Below, piece by piece: positions 3,117 through 21,213 of a DNA stretch of 22,909 nt. The notes beneath the pieces were generated by a model. The model ran no database searches and had not been told where the DNA came from. It saw only the letters and a program-made list of their open reading frames with translations. This DNA comes from Candidatus Geohabitans tengchongensis (GTDB taxonomy: Bacteria > Sysuimicrobiota > Sysuimicrobiia > Sysuimicrobiales > Humicultoraceae). The DNA lies in the NCBI GenBank assembly GCA_031459625.1, contig JAVKIH010000013.1, forward strand, positions 1 to 22,909, written 5' to 3'. Position 1 is the first letter of the stretch. Every line of letters starts with the position of its first letter. A program made the position numbers and the translations under genes.

Positions 3117-3362
3117 CGCGCCACCCCCTGGGTAGGAGGTTTGTCTCAAGACTGGGGATTCCTCCATGCGCGGGGGCGGCCCGTGCCCGGGCGAAGTTGC
3201 CACGATCCTCCCGCGACATTGCCTGGCGCCTGCCGTGCGCCCCCGAGCCGGCGCGGGGGTGGGTGGGGGGCCGGAGCCGGTGCGGGTACCGGGTCTCTCC
3301 CTGCCGTGGTCGCCCCGCCCGCGAGGCGGTACACTGGCCCTGAGGGCATTCCGGCGATCACC

Positions 3363-4664
3363 ATGGCGACCGAGGTCTTTGCCGAGGAGATCGAGGCCTT
3401 CCTCGAGCAGGTCGAGGGCGTGGCCGCCGCCCGCGTCGTCGCCACCGACGAGGGGCGCATCGACCGCATCTACCTGACCACGGAGACCCAGCGCGACGAC
3501 GCCGCGCTGCGGCGGGCGGTGACGGCGGCGCTGGCCAGCCGCTACCGCCTCCACCTGGAAGGGTGGCGGGTCCAGATCGCCCACCTGGAGCCCGATCCCA
3601 CCCGACGGCCGCACTTCCACCTCCACCGGCTCGAGGAGACGCTCACCGGGGAGGCCACGCGCGTCATCGTCGAGCTGCGCTACACCCGCAACGGCGGGGC
3701 CCGCACGACGACGGGGAGCGCGGAGGCGCCGACAGGGGGAGGCGCCGTCCGCGTCCGCACCGCCGCGCAGGCCGCCCTGGCCGCCGTGCGTCCCGTCCTG
3801 GAGGCGCTGGGGTGGCGGCCGGCGCTGGAGGCCGCGACGGTGATGCCCTTCGGCGGCACGCAGGTGGCGCTGGCCGCCGTGACCCTCGCCGGCGGCGGGG
3901 CCCTCAACGCACGGGGGCAGGTGCACATCGGCGCGGTTGCCGTCAGTGGCAGCGAGACCGAGGCGGTCGTGCGCGCGGTGCTGCGTGCGGTCGGGACGAC
4001 CGACGACCTGCCCGAGCCGCCGCGGGACCGCCGCGAGCGCATGGAGGCGCTGCGGGCCCACTACCACCGCCTGATCCGCCTGCCCGAGGCCGGGGAGGTG
4101 GCGGCGGCTGCGGAGGAGGAGAGCTTGCCGGAGCCGCCGCCGGCCGTGAGCGCCTCGGAGGCCGGCCCGGAGCCCGCGCCCGACGCCCCGCCCCAGGCTG
4201 CCACGCCTGCCGACGTCCCGCCCCAGGCTGCCACGGAAGCGCCGGCGGTGCCGGGACGCCCGTCGGTCTCGTGGGTCTCCGGAGGTGCGGATCCGGCCGG
4301 AGCGCCCAGTGCGGGAGCGTCCACCGGTGCCGCGGGGCTCCAGGAGATCCGTCCCGAAGTCGAGGGAGGTGCGGTGATGGCGACACGCGAGGAGCCGCAG
4401 CAGCGGGTGGAGGCGGTGTCCCGTCCCCCGGCGCGGCACGGGGCGCTGGAGGACGACTTCTACCGCCGCCTGGTCCACAGTGGCGTGCCCGTGCACATCC
4501 GCTGCCGGGACGGCTATGAGATCCCCGACGGCATCGTCAAGGACTTCGGCACCTACTGCCTGCTGGTGGAGAGCCAGGGGGTGGAGGAGCTCCTCTTCAA
4601 GCACGCCATCCTGACCATCCGCCCGCACCGTCCCGTGCCCCGCGACCTCCCCCTGCAGGCCTAG
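3363..4664 (+). CDS. Multidomain protein (433 aa): uncharacterised N-terminal domain, Pro/Ala-rich linker, C-terminal Hfq-like (Sm) domain
   Basis: ATG at 3363. The C-terminus [60 protein letters not shown] (4446-4625) aligns by eye to Hfq (LQDPF...VPVSI...G...G.I.SFDQF...YKHAISTVVP). There is an internal in-frame ATG at 4377 with GGGAGGT 6 nt upstream. Confidence 0.8.
4181..4235 (+). repeat. 30-bp in-frame tandem repeat in the linker ([10 protein letters not shown] / DVPPQAAT)
   Basis: cgacgccccgccccaggctgccacg at 4181 and cgacgtcccgccccaggctgccacg at 4211. Confidence 0.85.
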
Positions 4665-4672
4665 CCCGCCGC

Positions 4673-6223
4673 GTGCCCCCCGAGGACCTCCTGGAGGAGC
4701 TGCGCCGCCGCCGCGCCCGGGTGGAGGCGATGGGCGGTCCGGAGCGGGTGGCCCGCCAGCACGCCGCCGGCAAGCTCACCGCGCGGGAACGGCTGGCGGT
4801 CTTGCTCGACCCCGGCTCCTTCGTCGAGCTCGACCGCTTCGTCACCCACCGCGGCCGCGACTTCGGCCTCGACCGCCTGGAGGCGCCCGCCGACGGGGTG
4901 GTCACCGGCCACGGCACCATCGACGGCCGGCCGGTGGCGGTCTTCTCCCAGGACTTCACCGTGCTCGGAGGATCCCTCGGCGAGGCGCACGCCGAGAAGA
5001 TCGTCAAGGTGATGGACCTGGCCCTGCGCGTCGGCATGCCGGTCATCGGCCTGAACGACTCGGGCGGGGCGCGCATCCAGGAGGGGGTGGCGGCGCTCGG
5101 CGGCTACGCGGAGATCTTCTTGCGCAACACGCTGGCCTCCGGCGTGATCCCGCAGCTCTCCCTCATCCTGGGCCCCTGCGCCGGCGGGGCGGTCTACTCG
5201 CCGGCCATCACCGACTTCACCATCATGGTGCGCGGGACGTCTTACATGTACGTCACCGGCCCGCAGGTGGTGCGGGCGGTGACGCGGGAGGAGGTCACCC
5301 ACGAGCAGCTCGGCGGGGCGGACGTGCACGCCGAGCGCAGCGGCGTGGCGCACCTCGTGGCCGAGGACGACGAGGAGGCCCTCACGCTGGCACGGCGGCT
5401 GCTGGCCTACCTCCCCCAGAACAACCTGGAGGAGCCGCCGCGCCTGCCCCCCACCGACGATCCGGGCCGCATGGAGGACGCGCTCAACACGCTGGTCCCG
5501 GAGGACCCCCAGCGTCCCTACGACATGCACGAGGTCATCCGCCTGATCGTGGACCACGGCGAGTTCCTGGAGGTCCAGCCGGCGTTCGCCCGCAACCTGC
5601 TGGTGGGCTTCGCCCGCCTGCACGGCCGACCGGTGGGCATCGTGGCGCAACAGCCCAGCGTGCTGGCCGGGGTGCTCGACATCGACGCCTCGGTGAAGGG
5701 GGCGCGCTTCATCCGCTTCTGCGACGCCTTCAACATCCCGCTGGTGACCTTCGTGGACGTGCCGGGGTTCATGCCGGGCACAGCGCAGGAGTACGGCGGC
5801 ATCATCCGCCACGGGGCCAAGCTCCTCTACGCCTACTGCGAGGCCACCGTCCCCAAGCTCGCCGTCATCACCCGCAAGGCCTACGGCGGCGCCTACGACG
5901 TGATGTCGAGCAAGCACATCCGCGGCGACCTCAACCTGGCCTGGCCCACGGCGGAGATCGCCGTCATGGGGCCAGAGGCGGCCATCGACATCATCTTCCG
6001 GCGGGAGCTGGCCGAGGCGCCCGACCCGGAGGCCCGCCGCCGCGAGCTCGTGGCCGAGTACCGGGCGCGCTTCGCCAACCCGTACGTGGCCGCCGCGCGG
6101 GGCTACCTGGACGACGTCATCGAACCCCGCGAGACCCGCCCCCGTCTCATCGCCGCCCTCGAGGTCCTGGCCCACAAGCGCCAGAGCCCGCCGCGCCGCA
6201 AGCACGGCAACATCCCTCTGTAG
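4673..6223 (+). CDS. pccB: Acyl-CoA carboxylase carboxyltransferase subunit (propionyl-CoA carboxylase beta-like)
   Basis: [35 protein letters not shown] and C-terminal KHGNIPL motifs. Clustered with mutase and epimerase genes. Confidence 0.92.
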
Positions 6224-6314
6224 GGGAGAGCGTCCGGCACCTGCAGGGCGTCCGGCCCGCACCCCCCGGGAGTCTACCGGCCGGGCGACTGGCGCTCCCC
6301 GCTGATCGGCTGGT

Positions 6315-6360
6315 TATAATAAGAGCCGGGAAGGCTGCCGGACCCTGTGCGTAGGGAGGT
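6315..6360 (+). promoter_or_regulatory. Candidate -10 box and strong RBS for the SPW-repeat gene
   Basis: Perfect TATAAT at 6315-6320 in otherwise very GC-rich DNA; AGGGAGGT at 6353-6360. No clear -35. Confidence 0.55.
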
Positions 6361-6368
6361 GATGCGCC

Positions 6369-6716
6369 ATGGTCTGGGCGAACTGGGTCAACGCCCTGGT
6401 CGGCCTCTGGTTCATCATCGCGCCCTTCGCGCTGGGCTTCCGGGACCAGAGCGGGGCCACCTGGCTGAGCATCATCGGCGGCGCCATCCTGCTCGTCCTG
6501 GCGGCCTGGGCCGCCATGAGCGAGGAGGCGCGGCGACAGCGGTGGATCCAGTACGTGAACGGCCTGATCGGGCTGTGGTTCATCGTCTTCCCCTTCGTGC
6601 TGGGCCTCACCGCCCGGTCGGCCGTCACCTGGACCTCCGTGATCGGTGGCCTGATCGCGCTGGTGCTCAGCGCCTGGCTGGCGTTCAGCGTCCTGCCGCG
6701 CGAAGCCCGCGCCTGA
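6369..6716 (+). CDS. SPW-repeat membrane protein (115 aa, about 4 TM helices)
   Basis: Two internal repeats WVNALVGLWFIIAPFALGF and YVNGLIGLWFIVFPFVLGL; RBS 8 nt upstream. Confidence 0.85.
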   Translation: MVWANWVNALVGLWFIIAPFALGFRDQSGATWLSIIGGAILLVLAAWAAMSEEARRQRWIQYVNGLIGLWFIVFPFVLGLTARSAVTWTSVIGGLIALVLSAWLAFSVLPREARA

Positions 6717-6868
6717 TCTGCGCCGCCTCCTGAGGGCGGCACGCTGTCTTGGCCTGTCTCGTCCGGCCGGCGGCCTTCCCACCCCGCCGCCACGCAGACC
6801 CACCGGTCGGTGCGCCGGGAGATCGTGGTCGGGCCGCATCCGGCCCTGACCGGCGCGAGGAGGCTTCC

Positions 6869-7036
6869 ATGCTGCTGGTCGCCATCGCCGCCGCTATCGG
6901 CGTCGTGCTCCCGCTCGTCCGCTTCAGCCTGCACACCTTCCAGGTCCCGCCCGAGCAGCAGGGCGTGGCGGCCATGGCCCTCCTGGTCACCTACCTCCTC
7001 TTCCTCTCCCCCGTGCTCGCCCTGCTGGCCCCGTAG
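6869..7036 (+). CDS. Small membrane protein (55 aa, 2 hydrophobic segments)
   Basis: GAGGAGG RBS before ATG 6869; MLLVAIAAAIGVVLPLVRFSLHTFQVPPEQQGVAAMALLVTYLLFLSPVLALLAP; GC-rich third positions like neighbouring genes. Confidence 0.65.
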   Translation: MLLVAIAAAIGVVLPLVRFSLHTFQVPPEQQGVAAMALLVTYLLFLSPVLALLAP

Positions 7037-7084
7037 GAGTCCGCTCCCGGGGAGGCCCCCGTAGGAGTCCGCCCCGCGGGGAGG
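7029..7084. repeat. 28-bp tandem duplication spanning the stop codon of the small membrane gene
   Basis: ccccgtaggagtccgctcccggggagg (7029-7055) and ccccgtaggagtccgccccgcggggagg (7057-7084). Confidence 0.85.
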
Positions 7085-7124
7085 AATACTCCAGGTGTCC
7101 AGCAGCCCCGTGGGGTGGAGCGCG

Positions 7125-7603
7125 ATGAAGCTGGAGTACGTGGAACCGGGCGATCCCAAGTTCCGCGACTGGATCCGTCGCTACCGCGAGGAGATCAACG
7201 GCGAAGCCCCGCCCGACGACTGGCTCGACGGCTACCTGGAGACCCTCTTCAAGGAGCAGGGGAAGAGCCGTCACATCTTCTGGGGGGTGGACCAGGGGCG
7301 GCGGGTCGGGTGCGTGGTGACCTCCCTCCACCGCGGGATGAACGGGCGCCACCATGGGATGATCGCCGAGTTCTACGTCCACCCCGAGTACCGGCGGGAG
7401 GGGTACGGGCGGCGCATGGCCGAGGCCGTCATCGAGTTCCTGAAGGGACAGGGGGCCGGAGAGGTCTACGCCGCGGTGGTCGCTGGCAACGTCCGCGGCC
7501 TGCGCTTCTGGGAGTCCTGCGGCTTCGTCATCGCCCGCTACTCCCTCGTCTACCGGCCGGAGGCGCGCCGCGACGAGGACGAGGAGGAGGACGAGAGGAC
7601 GTT

Positions 7604-7607
<4 letters not shown>
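7125..7607 (+). CDS. GNAT-family N-acyltransferase with an acidic tail (160 aa)
   Basis: EFYVHPEYRREGYGRRM (acyl-CoA binding motif A), GNVRGLRFWESCGF and tail DEDEEEDERTF. GGAG RBS before ATG 7125. Confidence 0.88.
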
Positions 7608-9129
<1,522 letters not shown>

Positions 9130-9133
<4 letters not shown>

Positions 9134-9768
9134 CCGGCGGCACCGGCGCTGCCGACCGTTACGTGGTGGAGACGCCCTCGGGGCGGCGCGAGGTCGAGGT
9201 GGCGGAGCGCTCGCCGGGCCGGTACCGCGTGCGGGTGGAGGGGGCGGAGTATGATGTCGGGTGGCGCCGTGCGCTGGGGCAGGCCCACTGGTGGCTCGAG
9301 GTAACCGGGCGGCGCCACCTCGTCGCCGCCGAGCCCGAAGGGGACCGGCTCGGGGTCACGGTGGGGTGGAGCCACCTGGACGTGGGCGTCGGCCTGGCCC
9401 TGCCGGGGGGCCGGCGGCGGTCCGCTGACCGACGCGGTGGGCCGGTGGAGGTGCGCGCGCCGATGCCGGGGCTGCTGGTGGCGCTGGAAGGTGCGCCCGG
9501 CGCGCGGGTGACCGCCGGCCAGACCCTGGCTGTCATCGAGGCCATGAAGATGCAGATGGAGTTGCGCGCCCAGCACAGCGGCACGGTGCGCGAAGTGCGG
9601 GCGCAGGCGGGAGCCGAGGTGACGGGGGGTCAGGTCCTCCTGGTCATCGTCCCGGAGGCGGACCCCGGCGCGCGGGAGGGGGACGCCGGCGCGCCGGAGG
9701 GGGACGCCGGCACCCACGGCGGCGCCTCCGCCGGGCACCCCCGAGAGGAGGCGGGATGGGATGGCTGA
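9130..9768 (+). CDS. Biotin carboxyl carrier protein
   Basis: GTG 9130 overlaps the accC stop (GTGA). VRAPMPG and EAMKM biotinylation motif; low-complexity tail. Confidence 0.88.
9661..9711 (+). repeat. 21-bp in-frame repeat (about 2.4 copies) in the biotin carrier tail ([17 protein letters not shown])
   Basis: gaccccggcgcgcgggagggg / gacgccggcgcgccggagggg / gacgccggc. Confidence 0.8.
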
Positions 9769-11422
9769 CGAGCGGGAACGGATCCGGGCGGCCCGCGCGG
9801 CCTGGGAGGCGCGTGTGGACCGCGCGGCCCTGCGGCGCCCCGCGGTGGAGACCGCCGACGGGCTGCCCGTCGACCTGCTCTACACGCCCGCCGATGTCGC
9901 GACCGACTACCTGCGCGACCTGGGCTTCCCCGGCGAGCCGCCCTACACCCGCGGCATCTACCCGACCATGTACCGGGGCCGGCTGTGGACGATGCGCCAG
10001 TACGCCGGCTACGGCACCGCCGAGGAGTCGAACCGCCGCTTCCGCTACCTGCTCAGCCAGGGCCAGACGGGGCTCTCGGTGGCCTTCGACCTGCCCACCC
10101 AGATGGGCTACGACTCCGACCACCCGCTGGCCGAGGCCGAGGTGGGGAAGGTGGGCGTGGCCATCGACTCCCTGGCCGACATGGAGGTGCTGCTGGAGGG
10201 GATTCCCCTCGACCAGGTCTCCATCTCCATGACCATCAACGCCACAGCCGCCATCCTCCTGGCCATGGTCGTGGCTGTGGCCGAGCGCCGGGGCGTGGCC
10301 CCGGCGCGACTGGACGGCACCGTGCAGAACGACATCCTCAAGGAGTACATCGCCCGGGGCACCTACATCTTCCCGCCGGAGCCGTCGCTGCGCCTGGTCA
10401 CCGACACCCTGGCCTACTGCGCCGAGCACCTCCCCCGCTGGAACCCCATCAGCGTGAGCGGGTACCACATCCGCGAGGCCGGCGCCACCGCCGTGCAGGA
10501 GGTGGCCTTCACGCTGGCGGACGCCCTCACCTACCTGCAGGCCGCCGTGGACCGGGGGCTCGGGGTGGATGCGATCGCCCCGCGCCTGAGCTTCTTCTTC
10601 GCCGCCCAGATGAACCTCCTGGAGGAGGTGGCCAAGTTCCGGGCGGCACGGCGCCTGTGGGCGCGCCTGGTGGAGGAGCGCTTCGCCCCTCACGATCCGC
10701 GCTCCCGCCTGCTGCGCTTCCACACCCAGACCGCGGGGGCGGCGCTCACCGCCCAGCAGCCCGACAACAACGTGGTGCGGGTGACCATCCAGGCGCTGGC
10801 GGCGGTGCTGGGCGGCACGCAGTCGCTGCACACCAACGCCCGCGACGAGGCCCTGGCCCTGCCCAGCGAGGAGTCGGCGCTAGTGGCGCTGCGCACCCAG
10901 CAGATCCTGGCCTTCGAGAGCGGGGTGGCCGACACGGTGGACCCGCTGGGCGGCGCCTACTACGTGGAGGCGCTCACCGACGCCATCGAAGCGGCGTCCC
11001 GCCGGCTGATCGAGGAGGTGGAGCGCGCCGGGGGGATGCTGCGGGCCATCGAGACGGGGCTCGTCCAGCGGATGATCGCCGAGAGCGCCTACCGTGAGGC
11101 CCAGCGCATCGAGCGGGGCGAGCAGGTGGTCGTGGGGGTGAACCGCTTCACCGAGGGTCCGTCCTCCCCCCCCGCCGGCCGGCTGCTGCGCGTCGACCCG
11201 GCGGTGGTGGAGCGGCAGCGCCGGCGCCTGCAGGAGGTGCGGGCCCGCCGCGACGGCGGGGCCGTGGCGCGGGCGCTGGAAGCGGTGCGGCAGGCCGCGG
11301 AAGGGCGCGACAACCTCCTCCCGCCTATCCTCGAGGCGGTCCGGGCCTACGCCACCATCGGGGAGATCTGCGACACCCTGCGGGCGGTCTTCGGCGTGCA
11401 CCGGCCGGTGGCGCTCGTCTGA
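9761..11422 (+). CDS. Methylmalonyl-CoA mutase, substrate-binding (large) subunit, no B12-binding domain
   Basis: [61 protein letters not shown] and GGTQSLHTN motifs. The Tyr (10001) and Arg (10355) specificity positions match methylmalonyl-CoA mutase rather than the Phe/Gln of isobutyryl-CoA mutase. Confidence 0.93.
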
Positions 11423-11426
11423 GCCG

Positions 11427-12383
11427 ATGCGCGCCTCCCCGGCCGACCTGGCGGAGCAGGTGCGGGCCGGCTCGCACCAGGCGGCGGCACGCCTGATCAG
11501 CCTGCTGGAGGACGGTGACCCGGAGGGGCTGGCCGCCTTGCGCGCGCTGCCCCCGGAGCGGGAGGCCTACGCCGTCGGGATCACCGGGCCGCCGGGGGCG
11601 GGGAAGAGCACGCTGGTGGACGCGCTCACCCGGCTGGTCCGGGCGGAGGGCCGGCCCGTCGGCATCATCGCCGTCGACCCCACCAGCCCCTTCACCGGCG
11701 GGGCGCTCCTGGGCGACCGCATCCGGATGCAGGAGCACAGCACCGACCCCGGCGTCTTCGTGCGCTCGATGGCCACGCGCGGGCACCTGGGGGGATTGGC
11801 CCCGGCCACCACCGACGCGGTGCGCGTGCTGGCGGCGCTGGGGGTGGACCTCGTCCTGGTGGAGACGGTGGGGGCGGGGCAGGCGGAGGTGGACGTCGTC
11901 ACCGTCGCCGACACGGTGGTCGTGGTGGCCGTCCCCGGGATGGGGGACGCCCTGCAGACGCTGAAGGCCGGGATCATGGAGATCGGGGACGTCTTCGCGG
12001 TGAACAAGGCCGACCGCCCCGACGCCGACCGCACCGTGATCGAGATCCGCATGATGCTGCAGCTGGTCCCCCCGGAAGGGTGGCGGCCGCCGGTGGTGCG
12101 GACGGTGGCCACGACGGGGGAGGGGGTGGCCGACCTCCTCGCCGCGGTGCGGTCGCACCGGGCCTACCTGGAGGCCAGCGGGACCCTGGAGGAGCGCCGC
12201 CGGCGGCGCCGCCGCCACGCCGTGCTGCGGGCGCTGGAGGCCCGCGTGCAGGAGGCGGTGCTGGCGCGGGCGCAGCATGACCCCGTCGTGGCCGCCGTGC
12301 TGGAGGAGGCGGAGCGGGGGGGGCTGGACGCGCGCGCCGCCGCGGAGCGCCTCCTCCAGCGCCTGGAGGGGGCGGGCCGATGA
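11427..12383 (+). CDS. meaB: Methylmalonyl-CoA mutase-associated GTPase
   Basis: GITGPPGAGKST, AVDPTSPFTGGALLGDRIRM, ETVGAGQAE, KAGIMEIGD and VNKAD motifs. Confidence 0.93.
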   Translation: MRASPADLAEQVRAGSHQAAARLISLLEDGDPEGLAALRALPPEREAYAVGITGPPGAGKSTLVDALTRLVRAEGRPVGIIAVDPTSPFTGGALLGDRIRMQEHSTDPGVFVRSMATRGHLGGLAPATTDAVRVLAALGVDLVLVETVGAGQAEVDVVTVADTVVVVAVPGMGDALQTLKAGIMEIGDVFAVNKADRPDADRTVIEIRMMLQLVPPEGWRPPVVRTVATTGEGVADLLAAVRSHRAYLEASGTLEERRRRRRRHAVLRALEARVQEAVLARAQHDPVVAAVLEEAERGGLDARAAAERLLQRLEGAGR

Positions 12384-12775
12384 TCCGGCTCGCCCACCTG
12401 GCCATCGCGGTGCGCGACCTGGCCGGGGCGGTGCGGGTCTACACGGAGGCGCTGGGGCTGTCGCTCGCCGGGGAGGAGACGCTGCCCGAGGAGGGGGTGC
12501 GCATCGCCTTCCTGGAGGCAGGTGGCGTGCGCGTCGAGCTGCTGGAGAGCCTCGGCCCCGACACCCCGGTGGGGCGCTTCCTGGAGCGGCGGGGGGAGGG
12601 GATCCACCACGTCGCCTTCTACGTCGAGGACCTGGACGCCGCGCTGGCCCGGGCGCGGGAGCGCGGGTTGCAGCCGGCGGGCGGCCCGCGCCGGGGTGCG
12701 GAGGGGCGGCGCATCGCCTTCCTCCATCCATCCGGCAGCCACGGGGTGCTGGTCGAGCTGATCCAGGCCTCCTGA
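12380..12775 (+). CDS. mce: Methylmalonyl-CoA epimerase (VOC fold)
   Basis: HLAIAV, VELLE, RGEGIHHVAF and AFLHP..SHGVLVEL metal-binding motifs. ATGA overlap with meaB. Confidence 0.92.
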   Translation: MIRLAHLAIAVRDLAGAVRVYTEALGLSLAGEETLPEEGVRIAFLEAGGVRVELLESLGPDTPVGRFLERRGEGIHHVAFYVEDLDAALARARERGLQPAGGPRRGAEGRRIAFLHPSGSHGVLVELIQAS

Positions 12776-20368: not shown

Positions 20369-20490
20369 GAACGGCTGAAACCCGCGCCCACCGGACGTTT
20401 CAGACAGCGGAACTCCTCGGAGCCTCCCTCGGTCGAGGAGCCTGCCCCACGGAGGAGTTGGGCACAAGGTGGGGCGAGGGCCGTGTGGAG

Positions 20491-21093
20491 ATGACCGTCG
20501 AACAGGTGCGGCAAGAACTCGAGTACTTCGAGCCCGGCGTGGTCCGCCTCAACCCGCCCGCGCGCCCCCGGGAGGTCACGCGGGCGGAGGTGGTGCTGGG
20601 CGTCGCCTTTCCTCCGGCGTTCCGCCGGGCCCTCTCCGAGTTCAACGGCGGCTACGTCGTCGACCGGCCGGTCTTCGGTATCCCCCCGGTGCACTCGGCG
20701 TTGGACCTGGTCAGGGGCACCCGGCAGGCCCGCCACCTCTGGGGAGCGCTGGGGTGGTCGGAGGCGTTCGTCCAGGTGGGCAGCGACGGGTGCGGGAACC
20801 TCTTCGTGCTGCTGCTGGACCGCCGGGACGAGCGCGGGGAGTCGCCCGTGGGCTTCTTCGACACGGGGTGTATGGAGGTCACCGAGGTGGTGGCCAGCAC
20901 CTACCTCCACTTCCTCTGGTTCCTGGCCCAGGACGCCAAGTGGGAGTACGCTGCCGACGGCCGGCCCATCCCCCGGGAGGCCGTGGTGTGGACGGCCGAG
21001 GCGGTGGTGGTGCGGCCGACGGCGCTCTCGCCCTGGCGGTTCAACGAAACCTGGATGTTCGCCCACGACCCGATCCTGGCCCGCTGGCGGTAG
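20491..21093 (+). CDS. SMI1/KNR4 (SUKH) family protein (200 aa)
   Basis: LNPPARPREVTRAEVVLGVAFPPAFRRALSEFNGG, VGSDGCGNLFVL and VVASTYLHFL match the SUKH pattern. ATG 20491. Confidence 0.8.
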   Translation: MTVEQVRQELEYFEPGVVRLNPPARPREVTRAEVVLGVAFPPAFRRALSEFNGGYVVDRPVFGIPPVHSALDLVRGTRQARHLWGALGWSEAFVQVGSDGCGNLFVLLLDRRDERGESPVGFFDTGCMEVTEVVASTYLHFLWFLAQDAKWEYAADGRPIPREAVVWTAEAVVVRPTALSPWRFNETWMFAHDPILARWR

Positions 21094-21097
21094 GGCA

Positions 21098-21125
21098 TTG
21101 CCGCCTGGGGGGCGGCTGGTATAAT
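21098..21125 (+). promoter_or_regulatory. tRNA promoter
   Basis: TTGCCG (21098-21103), 16-nt spacer, TGgTATAAT extended -10 (21117-21125), 11 nt before the tRNA. Confidence 0.8.
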
Positions 21126-21136
21126 AATCTTGTCGA

Positions 21137-21213
<77 letters not shown>

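Follow-up and report, generated by a model that had tools for sequence, protein, structure and literature searches.

Hfq is, in textbook form, a small homohexamer. At one locus of the window, by which we mean the whole 22,909-nucleotide stretch of DNA analyzed here, an Hfq domain forms the end of a 433-residue reading frame, behind a large N-terminal module and a linker, and a second in-frame start lies just ahead of it. The question raised by this locus is which proteins are produced from the gene and what the N-terminal module would add to an Hfq ring.

Organization of the fusion gene

The features of the gene and of its downstream neighbor are as follows.

3330–3335, plus strand: −10-like hexamer TACACT, a possible promoter of the fusion gene judging by sequence, 27 nt upstream of the main ATG
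3363–4664, plus strand: fusion gene, long form of 433 aa, from ATG at 3363 to TAG at 4664, with a weak ribosome-binding site
3363–3590, plus strand: N-module subdomain 1, aa 1–76, small α/β fold in the structure model
3606–3995, plus strand: N-module subdomain 2, aa 82–211, fold of the LeuA/CimA allosteric dimerization domain
4026–4076, plus strand: conserved basic helix at the start of the linker, aa 222–238, with R223, E228, and R231 invariant in 24/24 aligned sequences
4077–4376, plus strand: Pro/Ala/Glu-rich linker of variable length, predicted to be disordered (alignment and model)
4347–4358, plus strand: IRPE peptide motif directly 5′ of the internal Shine–Dalgarno (SD) sequence (alignment)
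4364–4370, plus strand: internal SD GGGAGGT, encoding Glu-Gly-Gly in the long form (sequence and orthologs)
4377–4664, plus strand: predicted short form, a 95-aa Hfq from the internal ATG (Pfam Hfq 40.2 bits)
4434–4637, plus strand: Hfq (Sm) core, aa 358–425 (Pfam and fold match)
4673–6223, plus strand: acyl-CoA carboxylase carboxyltransferase gene (pccB-like), a conserved downstream neighbor outside the fusion

The frame of the fusion gene is already open from position 2202. A start this far upstream was rejected, as the extension would overlap a trypsin-like gene on the opposite strand and orthologs start at the position of 3363. The TACACT hexamer is not kept at its position in most orthologs. 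The preliminary description, made from the sequence alone, had proposed a globular N-terminal region of ~230 aa joined to Hfq by a linker of ~110 aa; both the globular part and the linker stand, with limits refined by the model to a folded module of aa 1–211, the helix of aa 222–238 (modelled at a pLDDT of ~67–69), and a low-confidence linker of about aa 251–357.

Directly 3′ of the fusion gene, window positions 4673–12775 hold a propionyl-CoA carboxylase/methylmalonyl-CoA mutase cluster (carboxyltransferase, GNAT, biotin carboxylase, biotin carrier, mutase, MeaB, and epimerase-like genes). Farther along, positions 20485–21210 hold a SMI1/KNR4 (SUKH) gene, then a tRNA-Met (CAT) at 21137–21213.

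The C-terminal domain is a divergent Hfq

In the long form, the Pfam Hfq profile (PF17209) matches aa 364–425 (nt 4452–4637) at 36.3 bits, against a cut-off of 27, and the core motif reads [10 protein letters not shown], followed by 12 further residues. An AlphaFold model of the core superimposes on solved bacterial Hfq structures with Z scores of 11–12 and rmsd values of 1.4–1.7 Å; against Aquifex Hfq (5szd), Z is 12.2 and rmsd 1.7 Å over 72 aligned residues. The C-terminal Hfq domain read from the sequence in the preliminary description is thus borne out by a Pfam match above cut-off, a match to the Sm fold, and the [YF]KH motif of Sm2. Across the 41 genomes searched, PF17209 exceeded its gathering score in 20. 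The NCBIfam equivalog cut-offs for Hfq are not reached (TIGR02383, 33.3 versus 61.7 bits; NF001602, 34.1 versus 95 bits). The domain is a true but divergent Hfq, a member by fold and by Pfam that lies outside the canonical equivalog.

Residues were numbered as in E. coli Hfq via alignment and counted over 69 fusion genes, with the pore, rim, and distal-face residues taken as they are generally assigned in Hfq. Within the pore, K56 and H57 are present in 69/69 genes and an aromatic, Tyr, is present at position 42 in 60/69. Position 8 carries Glu instead of Gln in 69/69, and uridine binding may differ as a result. When the rim arginines R16, R17, and R19 were tested, R16 was found in 0/69 and R19 in 19/69, with a nearby arginine at position 13 in 52/69. 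The distal face is altered uniformly (Y25R in 65/69, K31E in 66/69, Q52E in 69/69; Y25 and K31 each in 0/69). The fusion proteins consequently lack the enterobacterial-type set of residues for sRNA matchmaking (rim R16/R17/R19, distal Y25/K31).

From these residues we infer a ring that binds U-rich ends and is no general matchmaker; judged by the model, the core is expected to form a hexamer. It could also be that both forms of the protein are made and that the Sm core is no RNA chaperone, the hexamer serving as a protein scaffold that multimerizes the module, with the short form as a spacer. The sub-equivalog scores and the loss of R16, Y25, K31, and Q52 would fit such a scaffold, as would the statement, in the accessible text of PMC6561178, that annealing may be poor in an Hfq devoid of rim arginines. 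Against it, the pore residues K56 and H57 and the aromatic at position 42 are kept, and the same text names the proximal pore as the most conserved RNA site of Hfq and polyuridine recognition as its most conserved activity. We regard the scaffold as very unlikely.

The fusion is old and is usually the sole Hfq

The comparison drew on 70 genomes, one locus apiece, that had the complete gene on a single contig; genes cut by a contig end and genomes without a match were excluded. Module and Hfq share a single frame at 69 of the 70 loci, which belong to five families of the phylum CSP1-3 (Sysuimicrobiota), and the orthologous fusions are 34–57% identical to the protein of the window. At the single exception, the frame changes inside the module and the linker is intact, so that the linker stop codon in relatives for which a check had been proposed was not what broke the frame at any locus. 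Because one frame is kept at 69/70 loci across five families, the fusion is old. The same count upholds the earlier claim that Hfq is fused to a large N-terminal region in one gene and rules out the recent read-through fusion that had been offered with it.

A more general version of that idea is that two ordinary neighboring genes became one only lately, through a lost stop codon or a misassembly, with the internal SD as a relic of the hfq start. The module does occur free-standing, in the source genome and in thousands of clusters elsewhere, and the internal SD probably began as hfq's own start. The distribution over five families at 34–57% identity, with the only break in the module and not in the linker, argues against recent joining, and a contig of a public run carries the same fusion gene with no difference, which also speaks against this explanation. 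The probability of this explanation is close to nil.

The source genome, which is 94% complete, contains no second Hfq above cut-off in an Hfq profile search, answering the earlier suggestion to look for a separate canonical hfq; a weak second match (18 bits) was rejected, as it falls in an HtrA-like gene region. A profile of the Hfq core matched 74 of the 94 phylum genomes, once in 65/74 and with a second match in 9/74. The profile search gave no match in 12 genomes of one family (f5) or in the one f3 genome. In most CSP1-3 families, then, the sole Hfq is the long fusion protein, whose gene usually retains a second start within it, in a phylum described as abundant in soils and hot springs in the accessible text of PMC11604079.

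In family f5 (G028, G033, G036, G039, G086–G093), neither Hfq nor module was found, and 9/12 of its genomes are 94–100% complete; Hfq and module may have been lost together there, or never gained together. Short second Hfq-like genes were seen at L099:1989-2207 and L100:1722-2273, in genera g25 and g23, and the copy in G038 has lost the KH motif.

The surroundings of the gene are also conserved. A pccB-like gene lies ≤200 nt downstream at 63/69 fusion loci and a GerMN gene upstream at 63/69, the upstream side being rearranged in the source genome. Hfq is attached to the module in 13 of the best 150 representatives of its family and absent from the others.

An internal ribosome-binding site selected at the RNA level

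The internal SD GGGAGGT is separated by a 6-nt spacer from the in-frame ATG at 4377, which opens the 95-aa product; an in-frame GTG is also present at 4374. When SD pairing was computed against the 16S tail that this genome encodes on contig C43, the internal start paired at −15.9 kcal/mol versus −4.4 kcal/mol at the main start at 3363, in line with the earlier view that the internal ribosome-binding site is better than that of the full gene. Because the internal SD is the stronger of the two in 63/69 genes, the short form may be the commoner product. For the source gene alone, synonymous reshuffling attained the observed SD strength in 4/100 trials.

Comparison of orthologs was more telling, with the proviso that the genomes are kin, so that the counts below are not independent and overstate the independent support. 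The linker Gly-Gly of family f1 is coded GGA GGT in 26/26 genes, with an in-frame ATG, GTG, or TTG 7–13 nt past the GGAGG, against 2/71 for other Gly-Gly pairs. Third-position GC in f1, 0.88 across the module, is down to 0.52 over the seven codons that precede the pair and to 0.02 in the pair itself; where the internal site has been lost, the values are 0.75 upstream and 0.67 at the pair. The region of the internal site is less folded than its synonymous variants in 23/26 f1 genes, compared with 13/26 and 10/26 in control regions. In family f4 the encoded residues vary (GG, GE, EE, GV, EV), yet SD and start stay in register. A pairing energy of −11 kcal/mol is reached in 23/26 f1 genes versus 12/176 control windows, and in 20/21 f4 genes versus 4/152. 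At the 5% level, synonymous reshuffling was beaten in 21/26 f1, 8/21 f4, and 3/20 f2 genes. Within a 38-codon search window, the short products measure 86–96 aa in 44 of the 51 genes at −11 kcal/mol or better. An SD with an in-frame start at the domain boundary, together with synonymous conservation, is found in f1, f4, f6, and f7 and in 6/20 f2 genes. The internal SD and its start have been selected at the RNA level.

The conservation of SD and start, for which a check had been proposed, therefore holds for f1 (26/26) and f4 (20/21 reaching −11 kcal/mol) and fails for much of f2, where the SD is absent from 14/20 genes, several of them also without a start codon. Part of the conservation is at the protein level, since IRPE and Gly-Gly persist in f2: the IRPE motif is kept in 26/26 f1, 20/20 f2, and 7/21 f4 genes and persists as protein even without an SD. 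Because 10 of the 14 SD-less f2 genomes have no second Hfq-like gene, the short form appears dispensable and the long form sufficient in f2. Compensation of the lost start by a free-standing hfq was considered and rejected: a second Hfq-like match occurs in just 4/14 of these genomes, and such a match is also present in five genomes whose internal start is intact. A tree of SD gain and loss, built by a quick method with its base unresolved and at a threshold of −9.5 kcal/mol, looser than that used for the counts, required five changes; an ancestral internal site lost in parts of f2 is compatible with it.

These f2 genes bear on the proposal that the long protein alone is made, the SD-like sequence reflecting either a required IRPExxGG motif in the peptide or a site of ribosome pausing, which would give the module time to fold before the Hfq core emerges. 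Retention of IRPE in all 20 f2 genes, most of them without an SD, the 10 f2 genomes that lack both the internal site and any second Hfq, and the predicted pairing of the SD in the source genome would all agree with it. A peptide motif, however, leaves synonymous codons free, yet GGA GGT is used in 26/26 cases against 2/71; a pause site needs no in-frame start at initiation distance, and in f4 the start is kept despite residue change; and the start codon often decays along with the SD. We consider production of the long protein alone quite unlikely. That ribosomes use the internal start, giving an Hfq of 86–96 aa, is in our view likely from the conservation of the site.

Two further properties of the message were considered. 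A short hairpin is predicted to sequester most of the SD in the source genome (unpaired probability 0.24–0.36), and it may lower the output of the short form or serve to regulate it. An internal promoter in the linker was rejected, as no conserved motif was found there (2 motif matches in 69 genes), and the absence of such a motif favors two starts on one message. A public RNA run, X1, available as contigs only and possibly of DNA and possibly from the source sample, showed flat depth across genes and spacers.

Upstream of the long form in two families

A motif pair resembling a sigma-H promoter was seen upstream of the fusion gene in 16/21 f4 and 8–9/20 f2 genes (e.g. L096:2960-3003 and L071:2940-3003), and a true SigH ortholog was present in 5/5 genomes tested. 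Because a −10-like box lies 6–10 nt before the ATG in 20/21 f4 genes, the sequence points to a leaderless message for the f4 long form.

Fold and family of the N-terminal module

The model of aa 1–215 has a pLDDT of 90.7 and shows a confident two-subdomain fold. Subdomain 1 gave fold matches (VIA) at Z 7.0–9.1 and rmsd 2.3–3.4 Å over ~71 residues; its fold is common to C-subdomains of acyl-adenylate enzymes, cytoplasmic domains of CDF proteins, EscJ/PrgK ring motifs, and BolA. In the model, subdomain 1 thus has a fold common to several unrelated families, which by itself points to no function. Subdomain 2 matches 3fig (Z 9.1, rmsd 2.6 Å, 107 aligned residues) and 3f6g (Z 8.3), and Foldseek places it in the LeuA/CimA regulatory fold at an E value of 6e-5. 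It shares this fold with the C-terminal regulatory domain of LeuA/CimA (PF08502; Z 9.1 and 8.3, 107 aligned) and differs in having 11–21% identity, no Pfam match at cut-off, and no synthase attached. The PF08502 profile gave no match to the fusion protein and scored one paralog at 18.2 bits against a cut-off of 24.9. Double-stranded-RNA-binding domains (Loqs-PB, TRBP) were rejected as matches for the module, the Foldseek alignments having rmsd values of 14–21 Å.

The module is unnamed in Pfam, NCBIfam, PDB sequences, and the ESM Atlas. Its family comprises 3,287 clusters at 50% identity, with named members including Thermoanaerobacterales, Tissierellales, and Limnochordia, and the fusion offers a first functional handle on this nameless family of >3,000 sequence clusters. 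A weak search for other long module fusions returned one longer match, an internal duplication without a new domain. The source genome has a free-standing module paralog at L102:6132-6809 (G000 contig C28), between hpf and secA, in a cspA-hpf-paralog-secA cluster that is conserved in CSP1-3 (hpf at 34/38 and secA at 32/38 loci). The LeuA-like subdomain also occurs in this genome at the C terminus of a CBS-CBS-GGDEF protein (L240:3251-4555, minus strand) and alone as a protein of ~125 aa (L241:1592-1987).

The LeuA-like fold raises the possibility that, with two starts as before, the N-terminal module is a small-molecule sensor whose LeuA-like dimer interface binds an amino acid or similar compound and switches the ring. 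In fold, subdomain 2 comes closest to regulatory domains that bind leucine or isoleucine, the gene precedes a branched-chain acyl-CoA carboxylase/mutase cluster, and the LeuA-like subdomain is found on a CBS-GGDEF protein. Identity to LeuA is 17–21% at a Z of ~9, however, and a weak Pfam LeuA_dimer score was obtained for one paralog; a common fold implies no ligand, and the neighboring genes may reflect ordinary synteny. A sensor is accordingly an unlikely alternative. Whether the module is a targeting adaptor, as against a ligand sensor, we would put at even chances for the adaptor.

Proposed mechanism and comparison with known systems

In the reading that we prefer, one message with two starts would give the 433-aa long form and a short Hfq from the internal SD. 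Mixing of the two is suggested by the ring-forming core that both contain; each ring would show a few bulky modules, and the ratio of the starts would set their number. Provided that both forms are made, we think that they probably do mix in rings. Through its proximal pore the ring would hold RNAs by their U-rich 3′ ends, and general sRNA matchmaking would be poor because the rim arginines are gone and the distal face is remodelled. Specificity would come from the module, with subdomain 1 binding particular RNAs and the LeuA-like subdomain pairing with partner proteins. Taken jointly, a pore that grips U-rich ends, weak general matchmaking, and a module that adds RNA or partner specificity could equally well be right or wrong; for the overall account of a two-start gene, mixed rings, and an accessory module, the balance tips slightly in favor. 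Were both forms made, this would be a natural hetero-hexameric Hfq with a composition set by translation initiation. The fusion also lets one ask what Hfq does in lineages without sRNA-matchmaking residues.

Compared with bacterial Hfq (PF17209; E. coli, Caulobacter, Thermotoga, Aquifex), the fusion shares the Sm fold of a helix and five strands, the [YF]KHAI motif, and a single copy per genome. It differs in its N-terminal extension of ~340 aa, where a few residues, commonly four, are usual according to the accessible text of PMC6561178, and in the second in-frame start, Q8E, Y25R, K31E, the lack of R16, and the sub-equivalog NCBIfam scores.

An extra folded domain on an Sm/Hfq subunit is also described, in the part of PMC3710371 available to us, for SmAP3 and for C2H2 zinc finger-Hfq proteins of Thermococcus/Methanococcus plasmids, the plasmid proteins having it N-terminally, as in the fusion. 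Those proteins are archaeal, plasmid-borne or with a C-terminal domain, and the added zinc finger is small, whereas the fusion has a 211-aa module of two subdomains; that part of the paper mentions no second start, and the CSP1-3 fusion is the chromosomal sole Hfq in most of the phylum.

CheA L/S, CcmM58/35, ClpB, SpaO/SsaQ, and ArcB/ArcB-C are likewise each encoded by one gene with an SD-led internal start at a domain boundary, and heteromers from in-frame internal starts have precedent, as far as the available text of PMC13515050 and 10.1101/520783 goes. As predicted for the fusion, these pairs have conserved synonymous sites and a short form that consists of the C-terminal domain and can join the oligomer. 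They differ in including, in the same text, no RNA chaperones and in having been shown by experiment, whereas the Hfq pair is predicted. The word "hfq" occurs once in the accessible text of the internal-start review, in a reference title, and is absent from that of the Ribo-RET preprint; it is also absent from the main text of PMC11604079. No paper on this Hfq fusion, a two-start Hfq, or the AGCGG leader described below was found in the open literature searched. An additional N-terminal domain on Hfq and an internal in-frame start each have precedents, and the same searches turned up no paper that combines them.

Free-standing relatives and an AGCGG leader

Free-standing module genes were examined at the best 80 of 584 metagenomic loci. 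Of 68 downstream ORFs found at these loci, 39 were scanned, and 33 of those encode an HD-GYP protein as the next gene product; hpf lies upstream in 12 of 44 scanned (67 found). The gap before the HD-GYP gene contains tandem AGCG(G/A) repeats in 57/71 loci, against 0/71 inside the gene, and, with a loose filter, an SD and a hydrophobic peptide of ~24–29 aa in 55/71. The leader is enclosed by a long inverted repeat in 52/66 cases versus 3/66, and the third of the AGCGG-type repeats falls in a hairpin loop in 19/30 versus 82/600 shuffles, many of the loci counted being near-copies. For 22 leaders aligned with MAFFT, no consensus structure was obtained from RNAalifold, and the structure of the leader therefore rests on the per-sequence tests. 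Rfam gave no match at gathering score in 11 leader loci, and the Rfam scan of the window gave no leader.

The leaders lie 0–400 nt past the free-standing module gene at loci L160–L239 (e.g. L161:4130-4420 and L230:640-870) and precede membrane (MASE9-like) HD-GYP genes; the pairing segment covers the SD and AGCG sits in the hairpin loop. The leader peptide of 24–29 aa is hydrophobic, and ends in a small-residue GA motif and an aromatic/basic tail; the leader has no Rfam or Pfam match. The module thus pointed the way to a hitherto undescribed repeat leader that encodes a mini-peptide and lies ahead of membrane c-di-GMP phosphodiesterases, a candidate for peptide-plus-RNA control of c-di-GMP breakdown. 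Because a structured leader with repeated single-stranded words adjoins a conserved gene, RNA binding by the module family is suggested, and the free-standing protein may bind the leader repeats.

This lead bears on the module family and loosely on the fusion, since the leader is not enriched in CSP1-3, the source genome holds one worn copy, and the fused module has other residues in place of those that mark the free-standing family (H..R.PKQ..RD, DHKKIS). The leader pattern was found in 25/94 CSP1-3 genomes, fewer than with a reversed-pattern control, and in 3/12 genomes of the family without the module; the leader was accordingly rejected as a phylum-wide target. No AGCGG leader follows the hpf-linked paralog at L102:6132-6809.

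The widest reading of these data is that the module belongs to an undescribed family of sequence-specific RNA-binding regulators, whose free-standing members would recognize the AGCGG repeats in the leader of an operon for a peptide and an HD-GYP protein, and that CSP1-3 grafted a re-targeted copy onto Hfq. Separately controlled starts (in one family, a leaderless, sigma-H-type long form and an SD-led short form) would then tune the number of targeting arms per hexamer, with a protein guide replacing small RNAs. As a whole, this reading is speculative and rather unlikely.

Two places in the source genome resemble the leader. At L243 (G000 contig C12, near 279070, minus strand), three AGCGG repeats precede the SD of a secreted S-layer-homology-like gene; they may be due to chance, the genome being GC-rich and the tandem repeat no commoner in it than control words. 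The single worn leader copy, which has an inverted repeat and a 16-codon mini-ORF, lies in a low-GC island ahead of a membrane HD-GYP gene (L242:4273-4471, minus strand; G000 contig C6).
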